DNA of 62,333 bases from Candidatus Spyradenecus sp. (GTDB lineage Bacteria; Verrucomicrobiota; Kiritimatiellia; RFP12; DVOR01). Shown here piece by piece: positions 1-62,333 of this stretch (the first letter of the stretch is position 1; each line of letters begins with the position of its first letter). The stretch covers positions 1 through 62,333 of the forward strand of contig JBJEVY010000075.1 in the NCBI GenBank assembly GCA_051884775.1. The letters are read 5' to 3'. The notes under the pieces were generated by a model. The model was given only the letters and a program-made list of their open reading frames with translations, searched no databases and had not been told where the DNA came from. The position numbers and the translations under genes are program-made.

Positions 1-90
1 ACTTCAAACTCCGCAGTAAGCCTTCAACGACAACATACATTACCAACACAAAGAGCACAAAGAAACATAAAGAAAGGCACGCAGGGAAGG
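1..90 (-). repeat. Partial copy of family-A intergenic repeat (CACAAAG-rich), reverse orientation, at contig edge
   Basis: caacacaaagagcacaaagaaacataaagaaaggcacgcaggg resembles the reverse complement of units at 11861-12250 and 62000-62290. Nt 1-55 are the exact reverse complement of 62279-62333. Confidence 0.7.
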
Positions 91-439: not shown

Positions 440-1246
440 TTAGAGCACGCCGAGGGTGTGGAGGTAGCGCACCACGCCGTTGTCCGTGTTGGAGGGGGCG
501 TGGTGCGGGCAGAGGGCGAGGAGGTCGGGGTGGGCATTGGCCATCGCCACGGCGTGGGTGCCCAGGGTCATCATCTCGGTGTCGTTGAGGTAGTCGCCAA
601 AGACGACGGCCTCGGCCGGCTGCAGGCCCCGGCGTTGGAGGAGCGCGGCGAGGGCGCGGCCCTTGTTGATGCGCGCGGGCTGGACGTCGATCCAGTAGGG
701 GCTCGAGTGGATAACGCGCAGGTCGGCGCGCGCCAGGGGGGCGAGGCGCTGCCAGAGCACGCCGCCGGCATCGGGGTGGTAGATGGCCACTTTGCAGAGG
801 CGCACGGGCGGGAGCGGATCGAGCGGCAGGTGCTCGCTGCGCGAAAAGTAGTGGCCCACCGCCTCGAAGTTCGCCGGATAGGCATCATCGACCCAGGCGC
901 AGGTGGCCCCGCAGAGGACTGGCGTGGCCCCCGGCACGCGCCGGGCTGTGGCAATCACTTCGGCAAAGAAGTCCACTGGCGTGAGGTCCTCGAAGAAGGG
1001 CTCGCACTCGCCGCCGAGCAGCGCCAGGGCGCCATTCTCGGCGATGATATCCAGCGTCAAGCCCAGTTCGGCGAACTGCGCTTGGAGGTTGGCCAACTGC
1101 CGGCCGCTGGCGATGGCCCAGCCAATGCCGCGCTCGGCCAGGCCGCGCACAATGGCCGGGAAGTGCGCCGGCAACTGCCGCTGACCATCGAGCAGCGTGC
1201 CATCCATATCGGTGACAATCAGGCGCGGGGCAGGCGCGGCGCTCAT
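440..1246 (-). CDS. Cof-type HAD-IIB family phosphatase
   Basis: 268-aa ORF. HAD motif I is IVTDMDGTLL; C-terminal GDYLNDTEMM resembles motif IV. The ATG overlaps the larE stop (ATGA). Confidence 0.8.
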   Translation of the reverse strand: MSAAPAPRLIVTDMDGTLLDGQRQLPAHFPAIVRGLAERGIGWAIASGRQLANLQAQFAELGLTLDIIAENGALALLGGECEPFFEDLTPVDFFAEVIATARRVPGATPVLCGATCAWVDDAYPANFEAVGHYFSRSEHLPLDPLPPVRLCKVAIYHPDAGGVLWQRLAPLARADLRVIHSSPYWIDVQPARINKGRALAALLQRRGLQPAEAVVFGDYLNDTEMMTLGTHAVAMANAHPDLLALCPHHAPSNTDNGVVRYLHTLGVL

Positions 1247-2133
1247 ACAAGCCCTCCATCAAAGGAGCCCGAGCGGAAGCCCGCCAGATCCAGCGTCACA
1301 AAGGTGTAGCCCACGGAGCGGAGGAGATCCAGGACGCTCTCGCGGCAGTCGAGCACCGTCTGGAGGCTCTCCAGCGGCACCTCTAGGCGGGCAATCGGCA
1401 GATGGTCACGCACGCGCAGCTCCCGCACCCCGGGCAACATGCGCCGCAGCAGCGCCTCGGCAATGCCCACGCGCTCGAGCCCCTCGGCCGTAATCGCCGT
1501 GCCATAGGGGAAGCGCGTGGCCAGGCAGGGCGCGCTCGGCTTCTGCGCCACGCCCAGAGCCCACGCCGCGGCCAACGCGCGAATGTCGGGCTTGGTCAGC
1601 CCCGCCTCGGCCAAGGGCGAGAAGATCCCCAGCTCCGCCAAGGCCTTGCGTCCCGGCCGCCACCCGGCACTGTCGCCGGCGTGCGTGCCCTCCATCACTG
1701 TGGCCAGACCCTCCGCCGCGGCCAGGGTCAGCAACTGACCAAAGAGCGCGCGCTTGCAGTGGTAGCAACGGTCGGGCGGATTGGCCACCACCGCCGCGTT
1801 CTGCAAGGTGTCGATGCGTAGCAGGCGGTGGGGCACGCCGAGTTGCCGGGCCACCTCGGCCGCTTCCTCGCCCTCGCGCACCAAGTGAAAGGGCGTTGCC
1901 GCCGTCACCGCCAAGAGTTTGAAGGGCGCCTCGCGCTGCAACCGCGCCAGCGCCGCCAGAACCACCGCGCTATCCACGCCCCCCGAAAGCGCCACGAGCA
2001 CCCCGCCCGCCACGCGTCCACGCAGCACCGTCAGCAGCTTCTCAGTCGACAGTCGGCAGTCGACAGTCGGCAGGGCTGGCGCTTGGTGTGTTTGGCCCGT
2101 CTGAGCCGAGGAAACTTGACCTATCGGGTTCAT
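1243..2133 (-). CDS. larE: LarE, ATP-dependent sacrificial sulfur transferase (PP-loop) for nickel-pincer cofactor synthesis
   Basis: PP-loop ALSGGVDSAV and LarE-like length. The ATG at 2133 lies 4 nt after the larC stop. The ORF stays open to 2178 through a heptad array, so the start is somewhat uncertain. Confidence 0.75.
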   Translation of the reverse strand: MNPIGQVSSAQTGQTHQAPALPTVDCRLSTEKLLTVLRGRVAGGVLVALSGGVDSAVVLAALARLQREAPFKLLAVTAATPFHLVREGEEAAEVARQLGVPHRLLRIDTLQNAAVVANPPDRCYHCKRALFGQLLTLAAAEGLATVMEGTHAGDSAGWRPGRKALAELGIFSPLAEAGLTKPDIRALAAAWALGVAQKPSAPCLATRFPYGTAITAEGLERVGIAEALLRRMLPGVRELRVRDHLPIARLEVPLESLQTVLDCRESVLDLLRSVGYTFVTLDLAGFRSGSFDGGLV

Positions 2134-2187
2134 CTGTCTATCCGTTGTGTACGCAACTGTCGACTGTCGACTGTTCACTGTTCACGG
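2043..2187. repeat. Inverted pair of GTCGACA-type heptad arrays flanking the larC stop / larE start
   Basis: Left arm 2043-2073 is cagtcgacagtcggcagtcgacagtcggcag. Right arm 2157-2187 is ctgtcgactgtcgactgttcactgttcacgg. The inner 17 nt are complementary apart from one G-T pair. Confidence 0.85.
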
Positions 2188-3388
2188 CTGCGGCGGCTGC
2201 CGCGGCATAAACCTCCGGGTAGCCAACCCCGGCGCGATCGGCCACCGCGCGCACGCTCTCGCTTTCGGGGTAGACGCGCTCGAGCGCCCCATAGCGGCAG
2301 CACTTGGCCCGCACCGGGCCATAGGGCGTGGCAACCGTCACCGCCTCGCGCGCCATCGTGATGCGGCGGACCTTGTGGGTGCGCAGGCCGATGGTGGTGG
2401 TTTCGCGCAAGAGCACCTCAGCCAAGGCCGGCACATCGGCCTCGCGGGCCAAGGCGCGCAGGATAATCCCGGGGCGAGACTTCTTCATCGTGCAGGGCAC
2501 CAGCGCCACATCGAGCGCGCCGGCGGCCAGGAGCTTCTCGCTGGCCACGGCCAACGCCTCGCCCGTGCAGTCATCGAGGTTTGCCTCGATCTCCACCGCC
2601 TCCTCGTCCGGTCCCGAGGCCGCCTCAATCACCATTGCCCGCAACACATTCGCGCAACCGAAGTCGCGCTCCCCCACCCCAATGCCCACCTGGCGCACCA
2701 CAAAGCGTTCAGGCAGCGCCGCAGCCGTCCGCATCGCAGCGGCCAAGGCAATCCCCGTGGGCGTGACCCGCTCGCCGCGTACCGCCGTTCGCTCCAAGGG
2801 CAGGCCCGTCTTCCGGGCGATATTGAGCACCGCGGGCACCGGCACCGGTAGCTCCCCGTGCGCGCAGTGGACCGTTCCGCACCCCTCGGAGAGCGCCTCG
2901 ACCACGCACCCGGCCACCCCCAGGTCGGCAAAGAGCACCGCCGTGGCCACAATATCGGCAATCGAATCGAGCGCCCCCACCTCGTGGAAGTGAACCTCCT
3001 CCACCGCGCACCCGTGCGCCTCGGCCTCGGCCTCGGCCACCAACGCAAAGGCCGCCTCGGCCAGGGCCCGCGCCCGGGGCTCCATCGGCAGTCGCGCCAA
3101 AATCGCCTGCACATCGGCTAAATGGCGGTGGGCGTGCGCGTGACCGTGATGTGCGTGCGGCGCGTGATGCGCATCCTTCCCAAAGGCCTCCGGCAGTTCC
3201 ACCGCAAAGCGCTCACCCGCAATCCCGTGCGAGGCGGCCTTCGTCCATCCAAAACGCAACCCCTCGGCCTCCAACGGCGCCAAGGCTGCGCGGACCTTCG
3301 CCTCGCTTCCGCCCAACGCATGCAGCGCCGCAGCCAGCATATCCCCGCTCGCCCCGCAACTGCCCTCAAGGTAAAGGTAGGTGTTCAT
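2138..3388 (-). CDS. larC: LarC, nickel insertion protein (DUF111 family)
   Basis: N-terminal YLEGSCGASGDM signature and His-rich HHAPHAHHGHAHAHRH stretch. GGAGGAG SD before the ATG at 3388. The C-terminal tail (NSEQSTVDS) is encoded by a heptad array. Confidence 0.85.
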   Translation of the reverse strand: MNTYLYLEGSCGASGDMLAAALHALGGSEAKVRAALAPLEAEGLRFGWTKAASHGIAGERFAVELPEAFGKDAHHAPHAHHGHAHAHRHLADVQAILARLPMEPRARALAEAAFALVAEAEAEAHGCAVEEVHFHEVGALDSIADIVATAVLFADLGVAGCVVEALSEGCGTVHCAHGELPVPVPAVLNIARKTGLPLERTAVRGERVTPTGIALAAAMRTAAALPERFVVRQVGIGVGERDFGCANVLRAMVIEAASGPDEEAVEIEANLDDCTGEALAVASEKLLAAGALDVALVPCTMKKSRPGIILRALAREADVPALAEVLLRETTTIGLRTHKVRRITMAREAVTVATPYGPVRAKCCRYGALERVYPESESVRAVADRAGVGYPEVYAAAAAAAVNSEQSTVDSCVHNG

Positions 3389-6515: not shown

Positions 6516-6567
6516 CCCCTTAGAAGCGAACGGCACCGCAGTCGCGGTGCCTTTCGCTTCTAAGGGG
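6516..6567 (+). terminator. Long stem-loop downstream of pflB
   Basis: Outer stem ccccttagaagcgaa (6516-6530) pairs with ttcgcttctaagggg (6553-6567). Inner stem is ggcaccgc/gcggtgcc. There is no clear U-tract. Confidence 0.55.
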
Positions 6568-6589
6568 GATGACGGATGACAGATGAAAG
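6568..6589 (+). repeat. Heptad array (GATGACG GATGACA GATGAAA)
   Basis: Three consecutive 7-nt units directly after the pflB hairpin. Confidence 0.6.
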
Positions 6590-10663: not shown

Positions 10664-11620
10664 TTATGGTTGCCCGACATGGATTCGAACCATGACTATG
10701 GGCGTCAAAGGCCCGTGTGCTGCCATTACACCATCGGGCAGCGTCTGAACACATGCTCGCCAACACCCCGCCAAAGCCGGATGCCCGAGCGCCCGCTCCC
10801 CCTCCTCGCGACTGCGCACCAGCCCAAAGACCGTTGCACCGCTGCCACAAAGCGTGACCCCTTGGCAGCCGGCCGCCCGCAAAGCTTCCGCCGTCCGGGC
10901 AACCCCCGGGAAAAGCCCAAAACACGCCGCCTCCAGGTCGTTCCCGACCGCCTCAGCCACGCGCGAAACTTCTCCCGCTTGGAAAGAGAGGCGCACAGTA
11001 TCCCACAAATCATTCCCATTTGTCAACTTTTCCCCCGCCCCTCCGGCGCAATCATAGGCCCGATAAACCGCCGGCGTGGGGCAATGCGTCCCATCATTGG
11101 CCAGCACCATCCACACCCCCGGCCCAAAGGCCCCCGTCGCGCGCTCCACCACCTCCCCGCGCCCACGCATCCGCACCAACCCATCCAGCACAAACTGCGC
11201 CACGTCCGACCCCAGTTCCGCCCCCAACTCACACAACCGCTCGCGCGCCACCCCCAGCGCCCACAGCTCGTTCACCCCCCGCAACACCGTCGCCGCATTC
11301 GAGCTCCCCCCGCCAAGCCCCCCACCCAACGGAATCCGCTTGCGGATCTCCAGCCGCGTTGGCAACGCTCGCCCCACCTCCCGCTCCAAGAGCCGCACCG
11401 CCCGCACCGCCAAGTTCTGCTCCGGATCCGCCGGCATCGCCCCCAACGCCACTCCCTCGCCAACCACCGAGAGCGTCGTCTCCGCCGCGCGCGCCAACCC
11501 CACCTCATCGCACAACCCCACCGGCACCACCGCCGAATCCAACGCGTGAAACCCATCTTCCCGGACCCCAAGCACCCTCAGAGTCACATTAACCTTCGCC
11601 GGCGACAACATCTGCATCAT
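10664..11620 (-). CDS. ispE: 4-diphosphocytidyl-2-C-methyl-D-erythritol kinase
   Basis: GHMP-kinase motif KRIPLGGGLGGGSSNAA and N-terminus LSPAKVNVTLRV. The frame has no stop until 10664, so the last 25 codons overlap tRNA-Gln. Confidence 0.85.
   Translation of the reverse strand: MMQMLSPAKVNVTLRVLGVREDGFHALDSAVVPVGLCDEVGLARAAETTLSVVGEGVALGAMPADPEQNLAVRAVRLLEREVGRALPTRLEIRKRIPLGGGLGGGSSNAATVLRGVNELWALGVARERLCELGAELGSDVAQFVLDGLVRMRGRGEVVERATGAFGPGVWMVLANDGTHCPTPAVYRAYDCAGGAGEKLTNGNDLWDTVRLSFQAGEVSRVAEAVGNDLEAACFGLFPGVARTAEALRAAGCQGVTLCGSGATVFGLVRSREEGERALGHPALAGCWRACVQTLPDGVMAAHGPLTPIVMVRIHVGQP
10667..10740 (-). tRNA. tRNA-Gln (anticodon UUG), CCA encoded
   Basis: Minus-strand sequence tgcccgatggtgtaatggcagcacacgggcctttgacgcccatagtcatggttcgaatccatgtcgggcaacca. 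Cloverleaf folded by eye; anticodon loop CTTTGAC; T-loop GGTTCGAATCC. Confidence 0.9.
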
Positions 11621-11658: not shown

Positions 11659-11860
11659 GTGAACGGTGAGAGGTGAACGGTGAACGGTGAGGTGCTCGCT
11701 ACGCTCGCGTGAGGTGCCGCTGCGCGGCGTGAGGGTGGCGGCTGCGCCGCCGTGAGGGGGCGGCCTGGCGGAGCAGGCCGCTGCACAACGCTTACCGCCC
11801 TCACGCGCGCCCCTGCGCGCCTTTCCCCTTTTTGACATAACTCCTTCGCTTCGCTCGGAC
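11641..11860 (+). repeat. Composite intergenic cassette, copy 1 (heptads, GTGAGG-anchored hairpins, conserved TTGACATA..CTCCTTCGCTTCGCTCGGAC block)
   Basis: 11687-11771 is near-identical to 36877-36961. 11826-11870 is near-identical to 37061-37105. Heptads (GTGAACG/GTGAGAG) span 11659-11694. Confidence 0.85.
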
Positions 11861-12250
11861 TTGTGGTTGCTAACCTGCGTCCATTTCAGCGTGACAAGGC
11901 CTCCACAACCCTTTGTGCCCGCTGTGGTTGCTCATCCTGCGTGCGTTTCGGCGTGCTCTGTGCGTCTTTGTGGTTGCTAACCTGCGCGTATTTCGGCGTG
12001 CTCGGCGTGCGTTCCTTTGTGTTTCTTTGTGTTCTTTGTGGTTAAATCCTGCGTGTGTTTCGGCGTGACAAGGCCTCCACAACCCTTTGTGTTTCTTTGT
12101 GTTCTTTGTGGTTAAATCCTGCGTGCGTTTCGGCGTGACAAGGCCTCCACAACCCTTTGTGTTTCTTTGTGTTCTTTGTGGTTAATATCCTGCGTCTATT
12201 TCGGCGTGCTCGGCGTGCTCTGTGCGTCTTTGTGGTTGCTAACCTGCGCT
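11861..12250 (+). repeat. Family-A tandem array, about 70-bp unit
   Basis: Three near-identical 70-bp units start at 12015, 12085 and 12155 (ctttgtgtttctttgtgttctttgtggttaaatcctgcgtgYgtttcggcgtgacaaggcctccacaacc), flanked by degenerate units. Confidence 0.9.
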
Positions 12251-12263
12251 GCTTTGGGGCGCT

Positions 12264-16212: not shown

Positions 16213-17730
16213 TCACCTTTCGGCAAGGGTTAATGGGGTGTGGCCCTGACCGAAGTCGGGCCATTGGAGGAGCGTGTTGGGGTAGACCCGGCGCAGGTGC
16301 GCCAAGCGCTCGGCGCGGTCGGGCGCGGGGGCCAAGTCGGGAAAGTGAAGGGCATAGGTGTAGCCGGCCCAAGCGGCGAGCTTCGGCCCCTCGGCAGCGG
16401 GCGCAGCGCAGGGCGGGGAGAAGGGCCCCATCTCCAAGCCGCGGGGAACCTCAAGCCCGGCCTCGACCGCGAGATAGGTCTCCTGCGTCCAGACCTGGCG
16501 TTCGCCGCGCGCGGCGGCCCAGGTGCGCAGTTGCAGCCCCACGCGGCGCAGGGCCGCAAGGTCGCTCTCGGGCTTGAGGCGGATCCAAAAGCGATCTTGC
16601 GGCAGGGCCACCCAATCCTGAATGAGGGGCGAACCCAGGCAGGTGAGCGCAAGGGCGGCCGGAAGCATCACCTTGGCAAGCGCCAAGCGAAGCGAATCGA
16701 AGGGCAAGCGCGTGAAGGCAAAGGCCACCACCATCGCCAAAGGCAGGGTGGCGGGCACCTGATAATCCTCGTAGGGCACCGGCGCGCAGAGGTGCGCCAG
16801 CCCCAACGCCGCCGCGCACCAGAGCCACAGATTGGCCAGATGCTCGCGCTCGGAGGTTGCCCGCTTCAACGCCGGGCGCGCGGTCACCTGCAGCCACCCC
16901 AGCAAAATCATCCAAAAGGCGAGCAGCGGATTGAAGCGCAGCCACCGCGCCACGCACCCCGCACGCCCCAAGAGCCCCATCGGCTCGCGGGCGCTGTGGA
17001 AGCGAATCGCAGCCAGCAGCTCGGCCGGCCAGCCGATGAGTTCAGGCCCAAAGGCCGCCACCAGCCCAGCCGCCGCACCGGCACCAAACCAGAGCCACGC
17101 CCGGCGGCCCATCTGCGCGCGATGCCACCACAGCCACGCCGTCACCGCCGGCAAGAGCACGCCCATCGACAGGCGAATATCGGCCAGCAGGGCCAGAAGC
17201 GCACCGGCGGCCAACGCGCAGAGGGGGTCGAGCCCCGACCCATCGCGCCGCAACCCGGTGAGCAGCCGCAGCGCCCCGGCGATCCCCAGCGTGCAGAGCG
17301 CGTAGGTCTTGGGGATGACCGTGAAGTAGCCATACCACACATTCAGCCCCAGCAGGCACCAGAGCGTCACACGCGCAGCCCACCGTTCATCCAACCGCCG
17401 GCACCCGGAGGTGACGCAGCCATCGGCCAGAAAGAGCGCCGCCAGACCAAAGAGCGCCGTCAAGATTCGCCCGCCAAGCACACCGAGGCCCGACCACGCC
17501 CAGCCGAAGACCGCGTAGAGGAACGGGAAGAGAAGCCCTTGCGTGAAGAAGAAGTCGCGATGGGGCACCTCGCCGGCCATCATGCGCCGGGCCGCGTAGA
17601 GCCCCCACCCCTCATCTTGGTTGAGCGGCCCGAACCACACATTGAGCACGAGCATCACCACCGTCAGCCCCAGCGCGGCAAGGGCCCACCGCCGAAGCGG
17701 ATTTTGACCCGCCCCGGGTGGTGTTTTCAA
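16213..17730 (-). CDS. GT-C fold glycosyltransferase (family 39/83-like, PMT/ArnT type)
   Basis: First-loop acidic motif GPLNQDEGWGLYAARR and many TM helices. The stop lies 4 nt before the lnt start. The start is uncertain: TTG 17730, or ATG 18159 if the 198-bp repeats are translated. Confidence 0.65.
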   Translation of the reverse strand: MKTPPGAGQNPLRRWALAALGLTVVMLVLNVWFGPLNQDEGWGLYAARRMMAGEVPHRDFFFTQGLLFPFLYAVFGWAWSGLGVLGGRILTALFGLAALFLADGCVTSGCRRLDERWAARVTLWCLLGLNVWYGYFTVIPKTYALCTLGIAGALRLLTGLRRDGSGLDPLCALAAGALLALLADIRLSMGVLLPAVTAWLWWHRAQMGRRAWLWFGAGAAAGLVAAFGPELIGWPAELLAAIRFHSAREPMGLLGRAGCVARWLRFNPLLAFWMILLGWLQVTARPALKRATSEREHLANLWLWCAAALGLAHLCAPVPYEDYQVPATLPLAMVVAFAFTRLPFDSLRLALAKVMLPAALALTCLGSPLIQDWVALPQDRFWIRLKPESDLAALRRVGLQLRTWAAARGERQVWTQETYLAVEAGLEVPRGLEMGPFSPPCAAPAAEGPKLAAWAGYTYALHFPDLAPAPDRAERLAHLRRVYPNTLLQWPDFGQGHTPLTLAER

Positions 17731-18125
17731 TAGACGAGAGGCGATAGACGAGGAGGCTGTCGCCGGAGGTGGAGCGTCCGTCCGATGGACCGCCAGTTCC
17801 TCCGTCGCGGAACGCGCACTGTCGACTGTCGACTGTTGACTGTCGACTGGGCGCGCAGCGCCCCGCCCCGGGTTGACCTCGCATCCGCCCCGGGTTCGAG
17901 GTCGATCCGCCCCGGGTGAAGTTTTCGATAGGCAAGAGGCGGTAGGCGAGGAGGCTGTCGCCGGAGGTGGAGCATCCGTCCGATGGACCGCCAGTTCCTC
18001 CGTCGCGGAACGCGCACTGTCGACTGTCGACTGTTGACTGTCGACTGGGCGCGCATCGCCCCGCCCCGGGTTGACCTCGCATCCGCCCCGGGTTGGGGTC
18101 GGACTCGGGGCGGGTGCGTTTTCGG
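17711..18125. repeat. 198-bp tandem duplication (about 2.1 copies) upstream of, or in the 5' end of, the GT-C gene
   Basis: Unit 1 is 17711-17908 and unit 2 is 17909-18106, with a partial third. Each unit carries a GTCGACT heptad array (17819-17849, 18017-18047), a CCGTCGCGGAACGCGC core and three 22-bp-phased CCGCCCCGGGTT motifs. Confidence 0.9.
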
Positions 18126-20118: not shown

Positions 20119-20207
20119 GATGACGGAAGACGAATGACAGAGAACAGAGGCCTCGGCCGATCCGTCTCGGAACGTGTCCTGTCCTCTGTCCTCTGTCATC
20201 GGTCGTC
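20119..20207. repeat. Inverted pair of GATGACA/GAGGACA heptad arrays immediately upstream of the membrane-protein ATG
   Basis: Left arm 20119-20150 is gatgacggaagacgaatgacagagaacagagg. Right arm 20174-20207 is gtgtcctgtcctctgtcctctgtcatcggtcgtc. An 18-bp stem has 2 mismatches; the core is ccgtctcggaacgtg. Confidence 0.8.
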
Positions 20208-21672: not shown

Positions 21673-21857
21673 CAACCACAGAGGCACGCAAAGCCACGCC
21701 GAAATAGACGCGGGGTGAGCAACCACAGAGAAGCGCAAAGACACGCAAAGAAGCACAAAGGGTTGTGGAGGCCTTGTCACGCCGAAATAGACGCAGGGAA
21801 GCAACCACAGAGAAGCACAGAGTTCACAAAGAAAGGCACGCAGAGGCACGCAGGGGT
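21673..21857 (-). repeat. Family-A repeat array, reverse orientation
   Basis: aaccacagag..cacaaagggttgtggaggccttgtcacgccgaaatagacgcaggg is the reverse complement of units at 12015-12224. Confidence 0.85.
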
Positions 21858-21935
21858 TATCGAAGCAGGTACATGAAGCGAAGCACATAGCCATTAAGAG
21901 TTTTGCTGTGGCCTGCTCCGCCAGGCCACCCGCAC

Positions 21936-22072
21936 GCGCCAAAGGCGCACCTCACGGCCCGAAGGGCCACCCTCACGCGCCGAAGGCGCACCTCACGGCC
22001 CGAAGGGCCACCCTCACGCGCCGAAGGCGCACCTCACGGCCCGAAGGGCCACCCTCACGCGCCGAAGGCACC
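21936..22072 (+). repeat. 41-bp tandem repeat (3.3 copies) of paired GAA-triloop hairpins
   Basis: The unit gcgccgaaggcgcacctcacggcccgaagggccaccctcac starts at 21936, 21977, 22018 and 22059. Confidence 0.9.
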
Positions 22073-29215: not shown

Positions 29216-29276
29216 GTGAACGGTGAACGGTGAACGGTGAGAGGGGGCGGAGAGCCCAGCGGACAGCGGACAGCGG
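29216..29276 (+). repeat. Heptad arrays (GTGAACG x3-4, then GCGGACA x2)
   Basis: gtgaacggtgaacggtgaacggtgagagg at 29216-29245 and gcggacagcggacagcgg at 29259-29276. Confidence 0.85.
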
Positions 29277-29385
29277 GCGGCCTGGCGGAGCAGGCCGCTG
29301 CACAACGCTTACCGGCGCTCGCTGACGCTCGCTGCACCGCGCAAGCGCGGTGCCACGGAACGGGCAACGGCAGGAGGAGGGCTGG
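29262..29385 (+). repeat. 124-bp direct repeat, copy 1 (flanks an AT-rich DUF3800 remnant)
   Basis: Identical by eye to 30012-30135. Contains the CGGCCTGGCGGAGCAGGCCG and GCACCGCGCAAGCGCGGTGC hairpins. Confidence 0.9.
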
Positions 29386-29425
29386 CCTTCCGGTAAAGGG
29401 GCCCCAGCGCCGGGCGGGGTGGAGG

Positions 29426-29493
29426 CCAGGCGCGGCCATTGGAGCGGCCGAGGTGCCGGCCAGGCGCGGCCATTGGAGCGGCCGGGGTGCCGG
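29426..29493 (+). repeat. 34-bp tandem repeat x2 (CCAGGCGCGGCCATTGGAGCGGCCGRGGTGCCGG)
   Basis: Units at 29426-29459 and 29460-29493, with related single copies near 30193 and 42494. Confidence 0.8.
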
Positions 29494-29893: not shown

Positions 29894-30011
29894 CTAGTAG
29901 CACCGAACTGTGATTAGTGTATAACAAGGTGCACCACAAAGTCAACTTGGGCGCTGCGCGGTGGGGGGCGCGGGGCGCCCGTGAACGGGGGAGAGCGCTG
30001 CGCGCCTAGCA

Positions 30012-30135
30012 GACAGCGGACAGCGGGCGGCCTGGCGGAGCAGGCCGCTGCACAACGCTTACCGGCGCTCGCTGACGCTCGCTGCACCGCGCAAGCGCGG
30101 TGCCACGGAACGGGCAACGGCAGGAGGAGGGCTGG
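30012..30135 (+). repeat. 124-bp direct repeat, copy 2
   Basis: Identical by eye to 29262-29385, offset 750 bp. Confidence 0.9.
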
Positions 30136-30190: not shown

Positions 30191-30260
30191 GGGCCAGGCG
30201 CGGCCATTGGAGCGGCTGGGGTTTCTTGGAGTGCGGGGGCGTTGCCCCCCGCGCCGGGGG

Positions 30261-30288
30261 CTAGCAGCTAACAGCTAACCGCTAGCGG
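30261..30288 (-). repeat. Heptad array of the TAGC family (reverse orientation) overlapping the mnmA stop
   Basis: ctagcag ctaacag ctaaccg ctagcgg, the reverse complement of units in 35417-35535. Confidence 0.75.
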
Positions 30289-31379
30289 CTTTCTTCGGCG
30301 ATGGTGGCGCCGCCGAGGAGGTAGGCTCCGCGATAGAAGACGCAGGCTTGGCCTGGGGTGAGGAGGGCTTGGGGGGAGGCGGGGTGGACGGTGAGGTCCT
30401 CGGTGAGGGTGCAGTCGAAGGGGGGGTGGTGGTAGCGGGTGACGGCTTGGCAGGTGAGGGGGAAGGTGGGGGGGATGAGCCAGTGGGGGTCGCGGACGGC
30501 GAAGGCGGGGCGGAGGAGGGCTTCGCGGGGGCCGAGGGTGAGGGTGTTGGCGGCGCGGTCGAGGGCGACGACGAAGGCGCGCGAGCCGGTGGCGATGCCC
30601 AGGCCTTTGCGTTGGCCGCGGGTGTAGTTGGCCAGGCCGGTGTGGGTGCCGAGGCGGCGGCCGGCGGTATCGAGGATGGGGCCGGGGGTGGCGGTTTCTG
30701 GGTGGCGGCGGCGGAGTTCGGGGCGGTAGTCGCCACTGGGGAGGAAGCAGATGTCTTGGCTGCCGGCGGCGAGTTTGGCCTCGGGGATGGGGAGGCGCCA
30801 TTCGCGGGCGAGGGCGACGACTTGGGCGCGGGTCATGCCGGCGAGGGGGAAGTGGAGGTGGGGGAGGAGCTCGGGGGGGAGGGCGTAGAGGAAGTAGGAT
30901 TGGTCCTTGGCGGCATCGGTGGCGCAGCGGAGGGTGAGGCGGCCAGAGAGGGGCTCGCGGTCGAGGGCGACGTAGTGACCGGTGGCCATGGGGCCGCCGA
31001 TGGCGCGCTGGAGGAGGCCGAACTTGAGGCGGGGGTTGCACCAGGCGCAGGGATTGGGGGTCTGACCGGCGGCGTAGGCGGCAAAGAAGGGGGCGACCAC
31101 CTCGCGCTCGAAGGCGTCGCGCAGGTCGAGGAGGTGGAGGGGCACGCCCAGGGCAGCGGCGAGCTCGACCACGCCGGGGGCCGGTTCGGCCGAGCAGGTG
31201 AGCATGTGCCAGGCTTCCACCGCGTAGCCTTGGCGCTGGAGCAGCCGGACGCAGACGGCGGAATCGACCCCGCCGGAAAAAGCGACACCAATGGAAGGGA
31301 GCTCGCTACGCTCGCAGTGAACAGTCGACAGTCGACAGTCGACAGGGCTCGCTTCGCTCGCGCAGGGGAGGTCAGCCAT
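30282..31379 (-). CDS. mnmA: tRNA-specific 2-thiouridylase MnmA
   Basis: PP-loop GVAFSGGVDSAV plus NPCAWCN and DQSYFL motifs. GGAG SD lies 6 nt before the ATG at 31379. The first roughly 25 codons are encoded by repeat modules. Confidence 0.9.
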   Translation of the reverse strand: MADLPCASEASPVDCRLSTVHCERSELPSIGVAFSGGVDSAVCVRLLQRQGYAVEAWHMLTCSAEPAPGVVELAAALGVPLHLLDLRDAFEREVVAPFFAAYAAGQTPNPCAWCNPRLKFGLLQRAIGGPMATGHYVALDREPLSGRLTLRCATDAAKDQSYFLYALPPELLPHLHFPLAGMTRAQVVALAREWRLPIPEAKLAAGSQDICFLPSGDYRPELRRRHPETATPGPILDTAGRRLGTHTGLANYTRGQRKGLGIATGSRAFVVALDRAANTLTLGPREALLRPAFAVRDPHWLIPPTFPLTCQAVTRYHHPPFDCTLTEDLTVHPASPQALLTPGQACVFYRGAYLLGGATIAEESR

Positions 31380-31434
31380 CGGTCACTCCGTCGCGGCACG
31401 CGCCTGTCGACTGTTCACTGTCAACTGACGACTC
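31317..31434. repeat. Inverted pair of GTCGACA/GTGAACA heptad arrays bracketing the mnmA start codon
   Basis: Left arm is 31317-31345 and right arm is 31404-31434. The core contains ccgtcgcggcacgcgc (31388-31403), the SD and the ATG. GCTCGCTACGCTCGC lies at 31302-31316. Confidence 0.85.
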
Positions 31435-35416: not shown

Positions 35417-35535
35417 GTTAGCGGTTAGCTGTTAGCTGTTAGCGGTTAGCTGTTAGCGGATAGCTGTTAGCGGATAGCTGTTAGCAGATAGCAGATAGCC
35501 GTTAGCGGATAGCTGTTGGCGGATAGCAGTTAGCG
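35417..35535 (+). repeat. 17 uninterrupted heptads (GTTAGCG/GTTAGCT/GATAGCT) filling the whole intergenic spacer
   Basis: gttagcg gttagct gttagct gttagcg gttagct gttagcg gatagct gttagcg gatagct gttagca gatagca gatagcc gttagcg gatagct gttggcg gatagca gttagcg, with no indel over 119 nt. Confidence 0.95.
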
Positions 35536-36802: not shown

Positions 36803-37105
36803 AAGGGGCGCTGCGCGCCCCGTGAACGGTGAACGGTGAACGGTGAACGGTGAACGGTGAGAGGTGAGAGGTGAACGGTGAGGTGCTCGCTACGCTCGCG
36901 TGAGGTGCCGTTGCGCGGCGTGAGGGTGGCGGCTATGCCGCCGTGAGGGGCGGCCTGGCGGGCCGTTGGGTGCGCCCCAGCGCCCCCGGATTTCCCGGAT
37001 TTTCCGGACTTTCCGGACTTTCCGGGTCCCTGCGTGCCTTCCCCACCCTGCGCAACCTTTACCCTTTTTGACATAGCTCCTTCGCTTCGCTCGGACTTGT
37101 GCTTC
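36803..37105 (+). repeat. Composite intergenic cassette, copy 2
   Basis: Nine heptads at 36822-36885 (GTGAACG x5, GTGAGAG x2 ...). 36877-36961 is near-identical to 11687-11771. A 9-nt repeat ccggayttt x5 lies at 36986-37029. 37061-37105 matches 11826-11870. A short family-A remnant spans 37095-37150. Confidence 0.85.
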
Positions 37106-37159
37106 TTTGCGTGTCTTTGCGCTTCTTTGTGGTTGCTCATCCTGCGTGCCTTTGCGGCA

Positions 37160-39217: not shown

Positions 39218-39247
39218 AGTTCATCCTCTAAGCTCGCTACGCTCGCA

Positions 39248-39459
39248 GCGGACAGCCGACAGCTGACAGCTGACAGCGCTGGCGCTCGATGTGCTTAACC
39301 CGTCTGAGCCGTTTGAGATTGAGCGGACAGCGGACAGCTGACAGCGCGCACTGCGTGCGACGGGCGGGCTCTTGGTCTGTGAAATGTGGTTTCATCGTTT
39401 CTTCCGTTTGCTTATCCGTCGCGCAAGCGGCTGTCCGCTGTCGGCTGTCCGCTGTCGGC
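39248..39459. repeat. GCGGACA/GCTGACA heptad arrays in direct (39248-39278, 39323-39346) and inverted (39427-39459) orientation around a conserved core
   Basis: The core shares cccgtctgagccg (39299-39311) and flanks with 2075-2156. 39323-39346 pairs with 39427-39459 over 21 bp with 1 mismatch. GCTCGCTACGCTCGC lies at 39232-39246. Confidence 0.85.
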
Positions 39460-39519
39460 TTGCTTCATTTGCTTCCCTCGCCGCCATTCCTTGCCTCGGG
39501 CGCAACGCCGGCGTCCCCC

Positions 39520-42405: not shown

Positions 42406-42493
42406 GCCAACCTCGGGCGGGTGCGCGGCCAACCTCGGGCGGGTGCGTGGCCAACCTCGGGCGGGTGCGCGGCCAACCTCGGGCGGGTGCGTG
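42406..42493 (+). repeat. 22-bp tandem repeat x4 (GCCAACCTCGGGCGGGTGCGYG)
   Basis: Units start at 42406, 42428, 42450 and 42472. On the minus strand they lie about 30-120 nt upstream of the PEP-CTERM -35. Confidence 0.9.
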
Positions 42494-42646
42494 GCCATTG
42501 GAGGGGCCGGGGGTGCCGGGCGGGTTTTCTCGGGGTGCGGGGGCGTTGCCCCCCGCGCAGGTGCGTGCCGGGGGTTTAGGGGCAGGGCCCCCAACGGCCT
42601 GGGCGGCGAGGCGCGTAAGCGCATCGCCGCGCGGTGTGCTGGCGAG

Positions 42647-49460: not shown

Positions 49461-49519
49461 CAAAACGGGCGACGCTGCTAACACGATGGGCAAAACGGGC
49501 GACGCGCTAATACGATGGG
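49461..49519 (+). repeat. 30-nt direct repeat x2 (CAAAACGGGCGACGC(T)GCTAAYACGATGGG)
   Basis: Copies at 49461-49490 and 49491-49519. Confidence 0.8.
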
Positions 49520-49520
49520 T

Positions 49521-49566
49521 AAAGCAAAGGCCCCGCGAGCGTGTTACCACAGCTCAGGCGGGGCCT
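49521..49566 (-). terminator. Stem-loop downstream of the PpiD-like gene
   Basis: aggccccgc (49528-49536) pairs with gcggggcct (49558-49566). On the minus strand it is followed by TTGCTTT. The loop is large (21 nt). Confidence 0.45.
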
Positions 49567-49586
49567 GCTTGGAGAACGCCAGCGCG

Positions 49587-51260
49587 TTATTCTGCGGCGG
49601 CGGGTTCTTCCTCTGCGGCGAAGAGGGGATAGCCCTCGGCGTTGGTGAGGGACTGGCGGGCCAAGTTCCAGGTGAGCCAATCTTCGGCCACCAAGAAGGC
49701 GGTGCGCGGCTGGGCAACATCGGTGCGGCGCGTAGTCTTCTGGAGGGCATCGCCGGCCTGACGATCGGCCACATAGACGAAGAGGAGGTCGTTGCCCGGC
49801 AGAAGAATCGGCTCGGAGAGGGCCTTGACGCCGAGGGTGCCCACCGCGCTCATCACTTCGGCACGGTTGGGAATCTCGAGCTTGGCCGAGTCGGAGAGGA
49901 CGCAGGTAACGGCGGTCGAAGCGGTCAGCCCTTCCACCGCGCAGGCGGCGACGGCCTTGTCAAAGGCGCTCTCGGTGGCAAGAGCCTCCAGGAGCTTGGT
50001 GCGCAACGCCTCGCCATTGGCCTTCTGGCGCTTGGCCAGGAGGTCGCGGCGCAGATCGGCCTGCACGCGCGCCTTGACATCGGCCAGCGGCTCAACATGC
50101 TTGGCGGTAATCTTCTGCAGCTGCACCAGGTAGACGCGGTCGGTGCCCGAAACGGCATTGAAGTTGTTCTCGGTTTCGTCCATCTCGAAGACCGAGCCGA
50201 TGAGCTCGGAGGCGTTCTGGAAGCCGAAGGGGCGATCCTGGCGGACGGTGGTCTGCTTGGGCTCGCCATAGTCCTTGGCCGCTTCGGCCAGACCGGCCAC
50301 CTGGGCCTTGGCCACGAGCTGCTCGTTGACGATGGTCTGGGCGAGCTCAAGGGCCTTTTCGGCGCGGGCCTTGGCAATCACCTGCTCCTTGACCTCTTCG
50401 TAGGGGAGGACCTGGGTGGCATTGGTGCCGGTACCCTTGAACTCCTCGCTGTGGTCGTCGTAGTACTGCATCGCGTCCATCTCTTCGATCGTGACCTGCG
50501 CCTCAAAGGCGGAGGCGGGCACTTCAACATAGGCAATGGTGCGCTGTTCAGGGAGGGTGTAGGTTTCGGCATGGCCGTCATACCACGCCTGCACCTCGGC
50601 CTCGGGCGTTTCAATCTCCTCGACCTTGAGGGTGTTCTTGAGGGTGGCGGTGTAGAGGGTGGTGGTGTCGTAGAGGGCATCGAGGAGGAAATCCTGCTCC
50701 ATGGGCGAAACCCAACCCACGGCATTGAAGACGCAGGAGGTCATCGTCTGCGCAGGCAGCCAAACGGTGGCGAAGGTCTTCTCGAAGAGCGAGGCCTCGG
50801 CGTAGTTATTGCGCGAGAGGAAGGCGCGGTAGTAACCGGGATTGAAGACGCCCTGACCATCAGTGAAGAAGCGAGAGAGGACCTGCTCGGCACCGGCCTG
50901 GGTGGTGGTGAGGCCGTGGTTCAAGGCCACTTCACGCGCGGCAAGCAACTTCCACACCGCCTGACGGCGCGCCTGGGCCGCTTCCTCACTCTCGCCCGGA
51001 TCGGTGCGCATCAGCGCGCCGAAAATCTGCGCGCTCGGCGGCAGGAAGTAGGCATACTCCGAGAGGATGGAGAGGGTCTTGGCAGCGCTTTCGCTCTCCT
51101 GATAGGTCACCGCATTGCCATCCAGAAAACCGGCCACATTGGCGTTGGGCGCGGAGCTCCGGCAAGAATCGGCCACCACGAAGGCGAAGACCATCAGCAG
51201 GGCCAGAAAGCCCCAAATCAACTTGCTCTTAATCAGACGGGAGAAGTGGTAGATGAACAT
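49587..51260 (-). CDS. PpiD/SurA-N-like membrane-anchored periplasmic chaperone
   Basis: N-terminal anchor LIWGFLALLMVFAFVVA and PpiD-like length and composition. No clear parvulin catalytic motif was seen. Confidence 0.6.
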   Translation of the reverse strand: MFIYHFSRLIKSKLIWGFLALLMVFAFVVADSCRSSAPNANVAGFLDGNAVTYQESESAAKTLSILSEYAYFLPPSAQIFGALMRTDPGESEEAAQARRQAVWKLLAAREVALNHGLTTTQAGAEQVLSRFFTDGQGVFNPGYYRAFLSRNNYAEASLFEKTFATVWLPAQTMTSCVFNAVGWVSPMEQDFLLDALYDTTTLYTATLKNTLKVEEIETPEAEVQAWYDGHAETYTLPEQRTIAYVEVPASAFEAQVTIEEMDAMQYYDDHSEEFKGTGTNATQVLPYEEVKEQVIAKARAEKALELAQTIVNEQLVAKAQVAGLAEAAKDYGEPKQTTVRQDRPFGFQNASELIGSVFEMDETENNFNAVSGTDRVYLVQLQKITAKHVEPLADVKARVQADLRRDLLAKRQKANGEALRTKLLEALATESAFDKAVAACAVEGLTASTAVTCVLSDSAKLEIPNRAEVMSAVGTLGVKALSEPILLPGNDLLFVYVADRQAGDALQKTTRRTDVAQPRTAFLVAEDWLTWNLARQSLTNAEGYPLFAAEEEPAAAE

Positions 51261-58734: not shown

Positions 58735-58809
58735 GAGTGAACCGTGAGAGGTGAACGATGAGAGGTGAACGATGAGAGGTGAACGATGAGAGGTGAACGG
58801 TGAACGGTC
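58735..58809 (+). repeat. Heptad array with 14-nt super-period (AGGTGAACGATGAG x3, then GTGAACG x2)
   Basis: gagtgaaccgtgagaggtgaacgatgagaggtgaacgatgagaggtgaacgatgagaggtgaacggtgaacggtcg. Confidence 0.9.
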
Positions 58810-58843: not shown

Positions 58844-59530
58844 TTAACTCCGCGGCAGCAGGCGCACCAGGGCCGCCCCGCGCTCGGCAATCGGCAGGCG
58901 GATGCGCGCGTCCCAACCTACCGCTTCGTCGCGCTGCTCAGGGAGGCCATCCGCCGCCGAGAGCACATCCATCGTGGCGAAGGGCCGCTCCCCGGGCAAC
59001 GCCTCAATTAGGTCCGCCGCGCGGAAGGTCAGCACCGCCGGCTTCCCGCACGGCAGCACGAAGGCGCCCATCGTGTAGCTGCCATCGACTTCGCGCAGGC
59101 CAAACTGCAAGAACCACCCCGGCTCGCCCCGCCGGCACCAACGCGCCTCCGGCGCGCAACGCAACATCCGCAGCAGCGCGGCAAAGGTTTCGCGATAGAG
59201 TGGCGAGAAGCCGCCCGAGGCGTCCAACATCCACGCCCCCTGCGGACAGAGCGGCATCTCCCGGAAGGCTGCGAAGAGCACCGCCTCGGCGCTCTCCAAC
59301 ACGCGCGGCGAGGCTACGGCCTCGGGGTCCGCCGCCTGGCAGAGCAGCGCGGCCGGCGAAGGGACCTGCCGCTCGACCACGCACCCATCGGCGCGCCAGT
59401 AGCGCAGCGCCGTCCGCCCCTGCGCCGTGAAGTAGAGATTGACGGGCAAGCGCTCGCGGGCATCCAAAACTGCCCCCGTGCCTGCCCGTCGCGGAACGCG
59501 CCCTGTCGACTGTCGGCTGTCGACTGTCAT
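58844..59530 (-). CDS. Hypothetical protein (228 aa)
   Basis: The ORF follows the S1-domain gene stop by 3 nt. The first 10 codons (MTVDSRQSTG) are a heptad array. No motif was recognised and the start is uncertain. Confidence 0.45.
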   Translation of the reverse strand: MTVDSRQSTGRVPRRAGTGAVLDARERLPVNLYFTAQGRTALRYWRADGCVVERQVPSPAALLCQAADPEAVASPRVLESAEAVLFAAFREMPLCPQGAWMLDASGGFSPLYRETFAALLRMLRCAPEARWCRRGEPGWFLQFGLREVDGSYTMGAFVLPCGKPAVLTFRAADLIEALPGERPFATMDVLSAADGLPEQRDEAVGWDARIRLPIAERGAALVRLLPRS

Positions 59531-61521: not shown

Positions 61522-61612
61522 TGGCGGAGAGGGTGGGATTTGAACCCACGGTACCCATAAAGAGTACACAAGATTTCCAGTCTTGCGCCTTCGACCACTC
61601 GGCCACCTCTCC
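61522..61612 (-). tRNA. tRNA-Ser (anticodon GGA), long variable arm, CCA encoded
   Basis: Minus strand reads ggagaggtggccgagtggtcgaaggcgcaagactggaaatcttgtgtactctttatgggtaccgtgggttcaaatcccaccctctccgcca. The anticodon loop is CTGGAAA. Confidence 0.9.
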
Positions 61613-61999: not shown

Positions 62000-62333
62000 C
62001 CTGCGTGTCTGCGTTTCTCTGTGGTTTCCACCTGCGTGTGTTTCAGCGCGACAAGGCCTCCGCAGCCCTTCTTTTCTTTGTGTCTCTTTGCGTTCTTTGT
62101 GGTTGCTAATCCTGCGTGTATTTCGGCGTAACAAGGCCTCCACAGCGCTTCTTTTCTTTGTGTTCCTTTGTGGTTGCTAATTCTGCGTGTATTTCGGCGT
62201 GCTTTGCGCTTCTCTGTGGTTTCCCCTCGCGTGTGTTTCGGCGTGACAAGGCCTCCACTGCGCTTCTTTTCTTTGTGTCTCTTTGTGTTGGTAATGTATG
62301 TTGTCGTTGAAGGCTTACTGCGGAGTTTGAAGT
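62000..62333 (+). repeat. Family-A tandem array (forward orientation) running into the contig end
   Basis: Repeated ..ttctttgtggttgctaatcctgcgtgtatttcggcgtRacaaggcctccac.. units. The last 55 nt are the reverse complement of nt 1-55. Confidence 0.85.

Follow-up and report, generated by a model that had tools for sequence, protein, structure and literature searches.

The larC–larE junction

On contig JBJEVY010000075.1 of Candidatus Spyradenecus sp. (positions 1 to 62,333, the whole stretch analysed here and referred to as the window), the genes larC and larE meet between two inverted arrays of 7-nt units (heptads), and the locus raises the question of whether these arms form a hairpin dedicated to the two genes or belong to something more widespread. 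According to our analysis, the feature is one copy of a dispersed palindromic repeat family of ~140 nt, which is confined, as far as our scans show, to a small clade of Lentisphaeraceae comprising Candidatus Spyradenecus and relatives. At this junction the repeat is old and common to three genomes, and the copy has been co-opted: LarC ends in the right-end motif of the repeat, and larE probably starts within its core. We posit, with a probability of roughly two in three (about 0.65), that the family is an apparently undescribed repeat similar to repetitive extragenic palindromes (REPs), REPINs or transposable elements of the miniature inverted-repeat kind (MITEs), that its larC–larE copy was recruited for stop and start codons, and that it forms a REP-like stem in co-transcribed RNA. 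The features of the junction are as follows.

2138..3388, minus strand: larC, an open reading frame (ORF) of 416 aa with matches to the TIGR00299 and LarC2 profiles
1243..2178, minus strand: ORF of larE (1243..2133 when read from the ATG), with a match to TIGR00268
2138-2140, minus strand: larC stop codon TAG, within the right-end motif (c)TATCC of the repeat
2131..2133, minus strand: best-supported larE start, an ATG in frame, 4 nt past the larC TAG on the sense strand
2044..2073: left arm, AG followed by TCGACAG, TCGGCAG, TCGACAG and TCGGCAG (T-type)
2157..2184: right arm, CTGTCGA, CTGTCGA, CTGTTCA and CTGTTCA (A-type)
2075..2110: left half of the type-A core, with block 1 GCTGGCGCTTGGTGTG (2075-2090), spacer TTTGG (2091-2095) and block 2 CCCGTCTGAGCC (2096-2107), then GAG
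2108..2138: locus-specific ('variable') core stretch, holding the predicted larE start on the minus strand
2139..2157: right-end motif and small hairpin, TATCCGT and GTTGT-GTAC-GCAAC

The arms were delimited by Tandem Repeats Finder (TRF), an inverted-repeat search, unit parsing and translation, the left half of the core by exact motifs, family alignment and nhmmer (E 2e-21), and the variable stretch by family alignment. TRF returned period-7 arrays at 2043-2073 (CAGTCGA/CAGTCGG) and at 2156-2174 and 2170-2185 (ACTGTCG, ACTGTTC), and the inverted-repeat search matched 2049-2073 with 2157-2181 (25 nt, 84%) and 2043-2067 with 2156-2180 (25 nt, 88%). As a preliminary description of this DNA had stated, the arms can pair, with an inner 17 bp (2057-2073 / 2157-2173) that contains one G-T pair by direct reading; in the outer 14 nt, pairing occurs at 8 of 14 positions only. 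Its coordinates for the 83-nt core (2074-2156), which holds the larC TAG, the 4-nt gap and the ATG of the larE frame, were likewise borne out, as was the overlap of both arms with coding sequence, the larE side of which depends on the predicted start. The right arm is the 5' arm on the sense (minus) strand and encodes, together with the small hairpin, the last 16 codons of LarC; the left arm is the 3' arm and would correspond to about codons 21-30 of LarE when read from the ATG at 2133. The sense RNA from 2036 to 2194 folds at -57.4 kcal/mol (z score -3.7), and 0 of 200 shuffles were as good.

The repeat is present at the larC–larE junction in the window, in L047 (Spyradenecus) and in L033 (W1P29.020), and all three copies share deviations from the family consensus, namely GAG instead of GTG after block 2 and a hairpin that is a diverged, compensated form of the family's CGTC-tagged GTCGC-loop-GCGGC (in the window copy, C-G to T-A and C-G to T-G). 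In the window, the LarC frame runs across the arm and the hairpin to the TAG in (c)TATCC, with the tail ...AAAAAAAVNSEQSTVDSCVHNG*; its LarC1 and LarC2 profile matches run to residue 380 of 416. In L047 and L033, LarC stops 13 codons earlier at a TGA from a TTGACAG heptad (...AVNS*), which makes the tail dispensable.

In all three genomes, LarE has an open frame from the start codon within the core onwards, with ATG in the window, ATG in L047 and GTG in L033, the last of which is three heptads shorter (21 nt, an in-frame indel). The sole alternative start downstream, a GTG, reads GTT in L047, and none is conserved. The TIGR00268 match begins at residue 57 of the LarE ORF (profile position 13), 41 codons past the ATG at 2131-2133; LarE homologs start 2-15 codons ahead of the residue aligned with 'EKLL', and here the distance is 30 codons. 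From the sequence, the ATG at 2131-2133 is the best-supported start, which would give LarE ~29 N-terminal codons from the core and left arm of the repeat. The predicted LarC tail (16 codons) and LarE extension (~29 codons) are open and in frame in the three genomes and their peptides are not conserved. Substitutions in the LarE extension are mostly non-synonymous, which argues for a constraint on DNA or RNA and not on the peptide; the variable stretch (2108-2138) is 94-97% identical among the three copies, compared with 88-91% for the flanks. A metagenome scan for relatives with an empty larC–larE junction returned only LarE relatives at no more than 50% identity, with larC upstream in one. 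Annotation of the two proteins should take into account that the LarC C-terminal tail and the putative LarE N-terminal extension are repeat-derived and differ between close relatives.

A dispersed repeat in Lentisphaeraceae genomes

Contigs of one genome per species (GTDB r232) were scanned with the exact pattern GCTGGCGCT-N10-14-CCCGTCTGAGCC. The scan returned 72 stretches (the L-numbers used here), 68 of which, with 78 copies, come from four metagenome-assembled genomes (MAGs): Lentisphaeraceae W1P29.020, Candidatus Spyradenecus sp., the 'Kiritimatiellae'-labelled HGM23427 and an uncultured Lentisphaeraceae. The remaining four stretches look like chance matches. Each MAG holds 9 to 33 copies, the DNA compared consists of 8-kb pieces of the four, and the window is 87-93% identical to them over kilobases, which assigns it to a close relative (Lentisphaerota, PVC group). 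Clustering by the locus-specific part left ~42-44 non-orthologous loci. At two multi-copy loci, the ORFs tested were housekeeping genes (HAD hydrolase, dihydroorotate dehydrogenase, NusB, methyltransferase and NERD helicase). The 78 exact-pattern copies beside unrelated genes leave the idea of a device specific to larC–larE unsupported.

In the plus-strand orientation of the window, the canonical unit reads AG-(C/T N GACAG)x4-C, GCTGGCGCTCGATGTG-N5-CCCGTCTGAGCCGTG, ~30 nt, TATC-CGTC-(GC hairpin), G-(CTGTC N G/A)x4-CT. In detail, (T/A/G)AG stands outside the left heptads, and block 2 is (G)CCCGTCTGAGCCGTG(R)(R)AA, followed by ~25 weakly conserved, pyrimidine-rich nt with TTgGnCC. The right end consists of T(A/G)TC-CGTC-GCG, a loop of 3-4 nt, CGC, G, four CTGTC-N-G/A heptads and CT. 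The modal arm count is 4+4 heptads, the terminal AG...CT is conserved, and the usual total is ~141 nt with arms of ~30 nt.

The family is apparently undescribed, being without an Rfam family or a full-text match to its motifs. With Rfam 15, only tRNAs were found at the gathering threshold, and the window copy and a canonical copy gave nothing meaningful at E up to 10. Plasmid and phage sequences contained no match to the repeat, and in the literature search the motif strings occurred in no paper and none tied Lentisphaerae to heptamer repeats. The family is a clean case of a REP/MITE-like element in a little-studied group, the Lentisphaerota, with unusual and testable traits: inverted arms of four heptads with one unpaired base each, oriented placement at stop codons, interchangeable cores and a conserved locus-specific segment.

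Pairing of the heptad arms

The preliminary description had noted that arm type changes between loci with complementarity kept, and had taken this for covariation and for selection on a hairpin or cruciform rather than on arm sequence. We compared 29 nt of each arm in 42 non-orthologous copies, counting pairs and shuffling partners among loci. Arm cells paired in 78.5% of cases versus 77.9% after shuffling (81 of 500 shuffles were as high), and the covariation score was 0.104 versus 0.108 in shuffled sets, so that there is no family-wide covariation. That 95% of pentamer positions are Watson-Crick follows simply from the conservation of GACAG and CTGTC. The free base of each heptad is complementary in 30% of cells versus 32% by permutation, i.e., ~70% are mispaired, and at C-type loci it falls below chance (22% versus 31% expected, p ~0.013). 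A hidden pairing register was not found, as shifts of -2 to +2 heptads gave no excess complementarity. Slippage leaves pairing intact, since any register gives 6 of 7 pairs.

What stands of the earlier observation is that the flavour of the arms (C..G, T..A or A..T) tends to match within a locus. At the inner heptad, an A-type right arm faces 6 of 8 T-type left arms versus 3 of 34 other left arms (Fisher p 4e-4), the counts being 6 T-left/A-right, 2 T-left/other, 3 other-left/A-right and 31 with neither. A third matched flavour, ATGACAG facing CTGTCAT, occurs in other core types, and with these included 17 of 22 array pairs are Watson-Crick at the flavour position versus 6.7 expected (p ~1e-5). 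Exceptions exist in both directions (L008, L011, L017, L052, L060). In our reading, the two arms are inverted copies of one flavour by origin, homogenisation or selection; descent or homogenisation would account for the matching equally well. Complementarity is not kept up at the level of single bases, and there is no evidence that arm sequence is free: the pentamers are stereotyped.

Comparison of orthologous copies points the same way. Their arms turn over fast and without compensation, with unit numbers from 1 to 5 and changes of the free base, and a GCTAACA array has taken the place of the entire right arm and of the hairpin loop between L008 and L052. Paralogs with a near-identical variable stretch (L024, L040 and L055, the first two within one genome) carry different arms, both of T/A type in L055. 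The polymorphisms seen are such arm replacement and a nested gain at a second locus of the window, described below.

A regulatory hairpin particular to larC–larE would require complementarity to be selected for control of larE translation or of larC–larE coupling, with arm sequence free to vary. Although the stable stem, the enclosure of the larC stop and larE start within the loop and the matching flavours would suit it, this explanation is largely refuted by the family data, and we regard it as very unlikely. The copies beside unrelated genes speak against it, and the pairing is explained by column composition, with the free base mostly mispaired. Furthermore, the three orthologous larC–larE copies differ in their arms without compensation, and the LarC stops lie outside the loop in two of them. 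At other co-directional loci, at least ten in number, the next gene starts 9-30 nt beyond the element, from which we conclude that the larE arrangement is a secondary co-option. The larC–larE hairpin should not be annotated as a dedicated regulator.

Placement and orientation relative to genes

The coding strand of the flanks was called by a method guided by GC content at third codon positions; stop calls from the longest open frame are unreliable in GC-rich DNA. Copies between co-directional genes number 25 with the genes opposite to the alignment orientation versus 3 the other way (binomial p 3e-5), and a further 12 are convergent and 1-2 divergent. The hairpin-side arm therefore abuts the 3' end of the upstream gene, and the element has its sense strand on the minus strand of the window. 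Of 26 loci that could be scored, 18 have the upstream stop 1-38 nt ahead of the element, frequently with use of the terminal AG, and 7 have it inside the element. Several of the loci at which the next start follows 9-30 nt beyond the element have a purine-rich, Shine-Dalgarno-like stretch in between.

The adjacent gene is co-oriented in 84% of cases (37/44) versus 62% for coding bases further off in the same 8-kb pieces (p 0.001), which argues that orientation tracks the gene next to the element and is not due to replication direction alone. The two cannot be wholly told apart, as at least 28 of the 33 confidently called window genes are on the minus strand. No direct repeats that could represent a target-site duplication flank the AG...CT ends. 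Outside the element, the left-hand base is T/A/G and the right-hand base T/A/C/G, and a TA does not recur consistently.

Core and small hairpin

Blocks 1 and 2 are fixed by the search pattern, whereas CGATGTG, GTG and TATCCGTCGCG are nearly invariant though outside it. The core is non-coding, because the distance from block 1 to CCGTC (64-67 nt) is not a multiple of three; a small ORF is ruled out by this range of lengths and by the different frames of block 2 in the two window copies. A hairpin stem of 3-6 bp can form in 42 of 42 loci with 17 different loops, and a few stems, that of the window copy among them, are altered yet paired. CGTC stands ahead of the hairpin in 40 of the 42, CATC in one and CGTT in the window copy. 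The GTC of this tag can pair within a hairpin stem of 5-6 bp.

With arms and hairpin set aside, the core folds no better than its shuffles (mean z -0.01 on the plus and +0.19 on the minus strand). RNAalifold on the core returned only an invariant helix of 5 bp, and, when all core positions were compared pairwise, no covarying pairs emerged save one weak, probably subfamily-linked signal. A folded core RNA is thus ruled out by z scores near zero on both strands and no convincing covariation. Consensus matches to a sigma-70 promoter or an intrinsic terminator were absent at the element, and a sigma-54 promoter failed a by-eye comparison, in which the -12 element would fall in the variable spacer.

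Orthologous copies occur in 2-4 genomes, and between them the core is more conserved than the flanking 300 nt, which are mostly coding (Wilcoxon p 2e-6). Typical values in clear orthologs are 0.96-1.00 for the core, locus-specific stretch included, versus 0.87-0.93 for the flanks; the arms stand at 0.85 and 0.83. The variable stretch does not appear to act as a guide or antisense to its neighbours, as duplex energies at its own locus were no better than at other loci (both strands, both flanks).

These properties of arms and core could suggest that a dedicated RNA- or DNA-binding protein reads the 7-nt motif (AG or GACAG plus a free base), with arm pairing being secondary. Analogous cases would be HutP, which reads NAG-N4 repeats, and TRAP, which reads spaced triplets. 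Such a protein would fit an arm sequence that is conserved and not covarying, with one unconstrained base per heptad, and a unit number fixed at four with a conserved partial fifth (AG/CT). It would also fit the related heptad arrays throughout the genome, which include unpaired ones of up to 17 units, and a core that has no fold of its own and whose conserved blocks look like a recognition sequence. We nevertheless consider it unlikely, since no candidate protein is known, the three flavours (C, T, A) and the variants GTGAACG and GCTAACA demand tolerant recognition, and binding of a single strand leaves the inverted symmetry of the arms unexplained.

A more far-reaching proposal, which we likewise hold to be doubtful, is an undescribed, modular genome-wide system of cis-elements. 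A dedicated factor would read a 7-nt GACAG/AG code on two inverted arms, kept on purpose as an imperfect duplex with every seventh pair mismatched, and would act just after stop codons; exchangeable cores would provide each gene with its own address or setting for the fate of its mRNA or for translational coupling, and purifying selection would act on the locus-specific sequence. Were this true, the family would be more than a decaying selfish repeat.

Comparison with known repeats

GTAG- and CGTC-tagged REPs, in the portions of Di Nocera et al. 2013 (PMC3733652) used here, are found in co-directional and convergent contexts near the upstream stop, contribute stop codons, have intragenic copies and form mosaics as well as dimers in longer palindromes. 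For CGTC REPs these portions report that no dedicated transposase is known, and they define the repeat by an unpaired terminal CGTC (or TGTC/CCTC), a stem of 8-9 bp whose first two positions are complementary A/T, a loop of 4-5 nt and a CCA-like tail (PMC3733652). By this account, the heptad-armed element resembles CGTC REPs as a high-copy intergenic palindrome with CGTC 5' of a GC-rich hairpin, situated between co-directional or convergent and rarely divergent genes and within ~20 nt of the upstream stop, with ends that supply stops and with some copies that lie inside longer palindromes and are combined with other repeats in mosaics (PMC3733652). Our counts of 78 copies, 28 co-directional, 12 convergent and 1-2 divergent, agree with the copy number and placement described there.

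The differences lie in the hairpin and in the overall architecture. The stem of the heptad-armed element has 3-6 bp, GC-only, with a loop of 3-4 nt, CTGTC heptads take the place of the CCA tail, and CGTC lies partly inside the stem. The unit is ~140 nt long and has conserved non-palindromic blocks and four-heptad arms. In addition, Lentisphaerota is not among the phyla listed for CGTC families in the portions used (PMC3733652). Because the hairpin fails the definition of stem, loop and tail as given there, we do not file the element as a CGTC REP.

REPINs are said to be inverted REP doublets mobilised by REP-associated tyrosine transposases (RAYTs). The heptad-armed element shares with them dozens of copies and no target-site duplication, and it may also share two inverted hairpin-bearing ends in one long hairpin (clearest in a second core, type B, described below); it differs in the type-A core, which has a hairpin at one end only, and in arms made of heptad arrays. 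The Correia/NEMIS elements of Neisseria and the ERIC/IRU elements of enterobacteria are bacterial MITEs. Likeness to these extends to a length of 100-150 nt, terminal inverted repeats, conservation at orthologous sites and, on the reading that we prefer, co-transcription and long RNA stems that would act on mRNA processing or stability. In contrast to them, neither a TA nor any other target-site duplication was seen for the element here, and a related autonomous insertion sequence was absent from the 78 loci; its inverted repeats consist of tandem heptads in which one base is periodically non-complementary, and its orientation bias is strong. With regard to the features of MITEs in general, terminal inverted repeats on a short (under 300 bp), non-coding, multicopy unit were found, and a target-site duplication was not.

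Rickettsia palindromic elements (RPEs), of which RPE-4 and RPE-6 are classed as CGTC REPs in the portions used (PMC3733652), are palindromic repeats translated in host proteins, comparable to what the sequence predicts here for the LarC tail and probably the LarE extension. They are mostly internal in-frame insertions, whereas our element sits at a gene junction, where it supplies a stop and probably a start, and the tails that it would encode are not conserved as protein. Cyanobacterial STRR sequences are heptamer tandem repeats. TAACTGA forms direct heptamer repeats just upstream of starts, with one indirect repeat in 170 sets (MacGregor 2015, PMC4679880). Both resemble our arms as short arrays (2-6 or more units) of a specific heptamer that are intergenic and near genes, and for which a post-transcriptional role is proposed, not shown. 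They differ in unit sequence and host phyla and in that the heptads here form inverted pairs around conserved cores beside stops.

These comparisons bear on whether the family is simply selfish DNA, i.e., a MITE or REPIN mobilised in trans, for instance by a Y1/RAYT-like or other transposase acting on single-stranded DNA, and devoid of RNA function. The arms and the CGTC hairpin would then be transposase recognition sites, and placement would result from target choice, replication direction and purifying selection. Terminal inverted arms, a CGTC-tagged hairpin like the REP tags (PMC3733652, portions used), and the type-B core with inverted hairpins at both ends, as in head-to-head REP dimers and REPINs, are in keeping with this explanation. 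So are the paralogs, mosaics and nested copy, the absence of a visible target-site duplication (which fits Y1 enzymes) and of an RNA-strand signature, and the strong gene-strand bias of the window. However, no transposase was present among the neighbouring ORFs tested, and none of the 78 loci has a long copy with these ends that could be autonomous. Moreover, most copies are orthologously fixed across genomes of 87-93% identity, the cores, with their locus-specific part, are more conserved than flanking coding DNA, and orientation follows the adjacent gene. Purely selfish DNA is therefore a possible explanation, albeit in our view a rather unlikely one.

Proposed function of the repeat

According to the reading that we prefer, that of a REP/REPIN/MITE-like repeat with a co-transcribed stem, the element would have spread as a non-autonomous DNA element or through recombination between copies, and it would be co-transcribed with its flanking genes. 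In the mRNA, the arms would form a stem of ~28 bp directly past the upstream stop, with a mismatch at about every seventh pair, and this stem may be a barrier at the 3' end or a site of processing, through which the stabilities of the upstream and downstream cistrons would be uncoupled. At larC–larE, the stem would enclose the larE start; ribosomes finishing larC would melt the 5' arm, and larE initiation could thereby depend on larC translation. We infer this RNA function and mechanism from the anatomy and from the analogy with REP/BIME, REPIN, ERIC and Correia elements. If such periodically mismatched stems do form in mRNA, operon expression would be shaped at dozens of junctions. The case also illustrates how repeats of this kind can hand stop and, probably, start codons to housekeeping genes.

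Several observations weigh against this reading. RNA stem formation has no support from covariation beyond arm flavour, and among non-Watson-Crick pairs G-T (14) versus A-C (11) gives no RNA-strand signature. There is no U-tract terminator, with 0 terminator-like sites in 1800-2400 and no consistent T-run after the arms. The orientation bias could partly reflect replication direction, as for single-strand transposons, given the gene-strand bias of the window, and a simple stem model does not account for the conservation of the variable stretch. Since neither a transposase (among the neighbouring ORFs tested) nor a target-site duplication nor an empty site was found, mobility is read from paralogs and mosaicism alone. 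The larE start is a predicted one. Finally, on the strand that is antisense to the neighbouring genes, 13 of the 42 hairpins have GNRA or UUCG-type loops.

These loops, together with the constant orientation opposite to the flanking genes, might point to small antisense RNA genes transcribed from the plus strand of the window. We deem this extremely unlikely, as the element has no promoter-like or terminator-like sites and no Rfam match, its core is unstructured, and the variable stretch is not complementary to neighbouring sequence.

Locus 2 and other heptad-armed elements of the window

Two core motifs are shared by the larC–larE copy and a second locus (2075-2093 / 39278-39296 and 2096-2108 / 39299-39311), and the window contains no match beyond these two (expectation for the 19-mer, 0.2). 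The homology of cores proposed in the preliminary description holds for the left part, which recurs at 39278-39311; the likeness seen on the right is mostly the right-end motif of the family, TATCCGTCGCG-loop-CGC. The heptad-armed features of the window outside larC–larE are listed below.

39247..39321: type-A left part of locus 2, AG with CGGACAG, CCGACAG, CTGACAG and CTGACAG (39249-39276), block 1-N5-block 2 (39278-39311) and a truncated variable stretch
39322..39412: nested or chimeric part of locus 2, an extra left arm of AG, CGGACAG, CGGACAG and CTGACAG (39322-39344) and a type-B core starting GCGCACTGCGTGCGACGG
39413..39460: right end of locus 2, TATCCGTC, hairpin GTCGC-GCAA-GCGGC, CTGTCCG, CTGTCGG, CTGTCCG, CTGTCGG and CT
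31317..31433: another heptad-armed element, with T-type and A-type arms and the same CGTC hairpin but a different core
20133..20200: short heptad-armed element of the third flavour, ATGACAG, AGAACAG ... CTGTCCT, CTGTCCT, CTGTCAT, with a CCGTCTCGGAACGTG hairpin
17802..18047: tandem right ends in a 198-bp duplication, two copies of CCGTCGCGGAACGCG with an ACTGTCG arm
59486..59528: right end, CCGTCGCGGAACGCG with CTGTCGA, CTGTCGG and CTGTCGA, adjoining the stop of a gene on the minus strand

Locus 2 is not simply another copy. It exceeds its orthologs L037 and L071, which have a canonical type-A copy with a variable stretch of 31 nt, by 73 nt (window 39313-39415 compared with L037:3367-3396 and L071), and the nested part, with its extra heptad array and second core type, is absent from both by alignment and blast. 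The locus folds at -103.6 kcal/mol (z -4.9). The type-B core (39346-39431) is also found in L040:2425-2560. Its left end is an inverted CGTC hairpin; bearing such hairpins in inverted orientation at its two ends, it looks like a head-to-head REP dimer. On the minus strand, the second core of locus 2 contains GGAAGAA-N3-5-ATGAA(A/G)CC, which is like a Shine-Dalgarno sequence plus start and resembles the larE start region.

Right ends made up of the CGTC hairpin and CTGTC heptads lie at 17802, 18000, 20162, 31388 and 59486, all on the plus strand and with other left parts or none. Several other cores between GACAG-type and CTGTC-type arrays occur among the collected loci. At 49505-49591 (minus strand), the window has a type-A core that is degenerate and lacks heptad arms (nhmmer E 6e-7); it begins directly after the stop of the minus-strand gene 49587..51260 and has, with respect to that gene, the rarer orientation.

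Other repeats of the window and related loci

Heptad arrays are a general property of intergenic DNA in the window genome. About 29 period-7 arrays, with units 1-2 substitutions apart, are present in the 62-kb window, of GACAG types, GTGAACG/GTGAGAG, GTTAGCG (17 units), GCTAACA and GGATGAC, and many of them are not in inverted pairs (examples are 11659-11690, 29216-29240, 36822-36881, 58737-58808, 35417-35535, 30260-30284 and 6567-6586). The 198-bp tandem duplication at 17706-18101 has 92% identity; its copies end in CCGTCGCGGAACGCG and the ACTGTCG array, and a 22-nt repeat, CCGCCCCGGGTT.., follows.

Further modules accompany the arms. One of them, GACATAGCTCC..CGCTCGGACTTG (and its reverse complement), lies at window 37070-37100 and in the left arms of L019, L024, L045, L048 and L058; it splits the type-A left heptad arm at several loci and, in L019, brackets a 2-kb segment in inverted orientation. 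Directly after the right arm, at ~10 loci (L001, L007, L014, L016, L029, L045, L048, L056, L067), stands CTTGCCA(N)GTTATC...TTCCACCG..CCTCG, which shows the intergenic regions to be mosaics to which several repeat families contribute. Just outside the heptad arms, on either side, there is often an outer module, GCTCGCTACGCTCGC or, as the complement, GCGAGCG.AGCGAGC (window 39233-39247, 31300-31315 and 36886-36900; L004, L012, L023, L024 and L071). Upstream of the type-A copy in L013, a GC-rich non-coding stretch of ~400 nt (L013:1190-1600) looks like a structured RNA gene and is a candidate for one.

A separate family, CTTTGTG/CACAAAG with a conserved CCTGCGTGTGTTTCGGCGTGACAAGGCCTCCACAAC unit, occupies 11862-12260, 21695-21822, 37097-37147, 62010-62290 and 47-82 and includes a 70-nt tandem repeat at 12014-12208 (2.8 copies, 96%). 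Both ends of the window (1-55 / 62279-62333) lie in a CTTTGTG-type module and form a perfect 55-nt inverted repeat, which is probably an artefact of the assembly graph and not biological, because 55 is a common assembler k-mer. Other repeats are located at 21924-22069, 42406-42497, 29424-29493 and 29241-29385 / 29991-30135, with units of 41 nt (x3.6, 98%), 22 nt (GCCAACCTCGGGCGGGTGCGCG, x4.2) and 34 nt (x2.1) and a 145-nt pair spaced 750 nt. The window also contains two tRNA genes on the minus strand, at 10670-10740 and 61525-61612.

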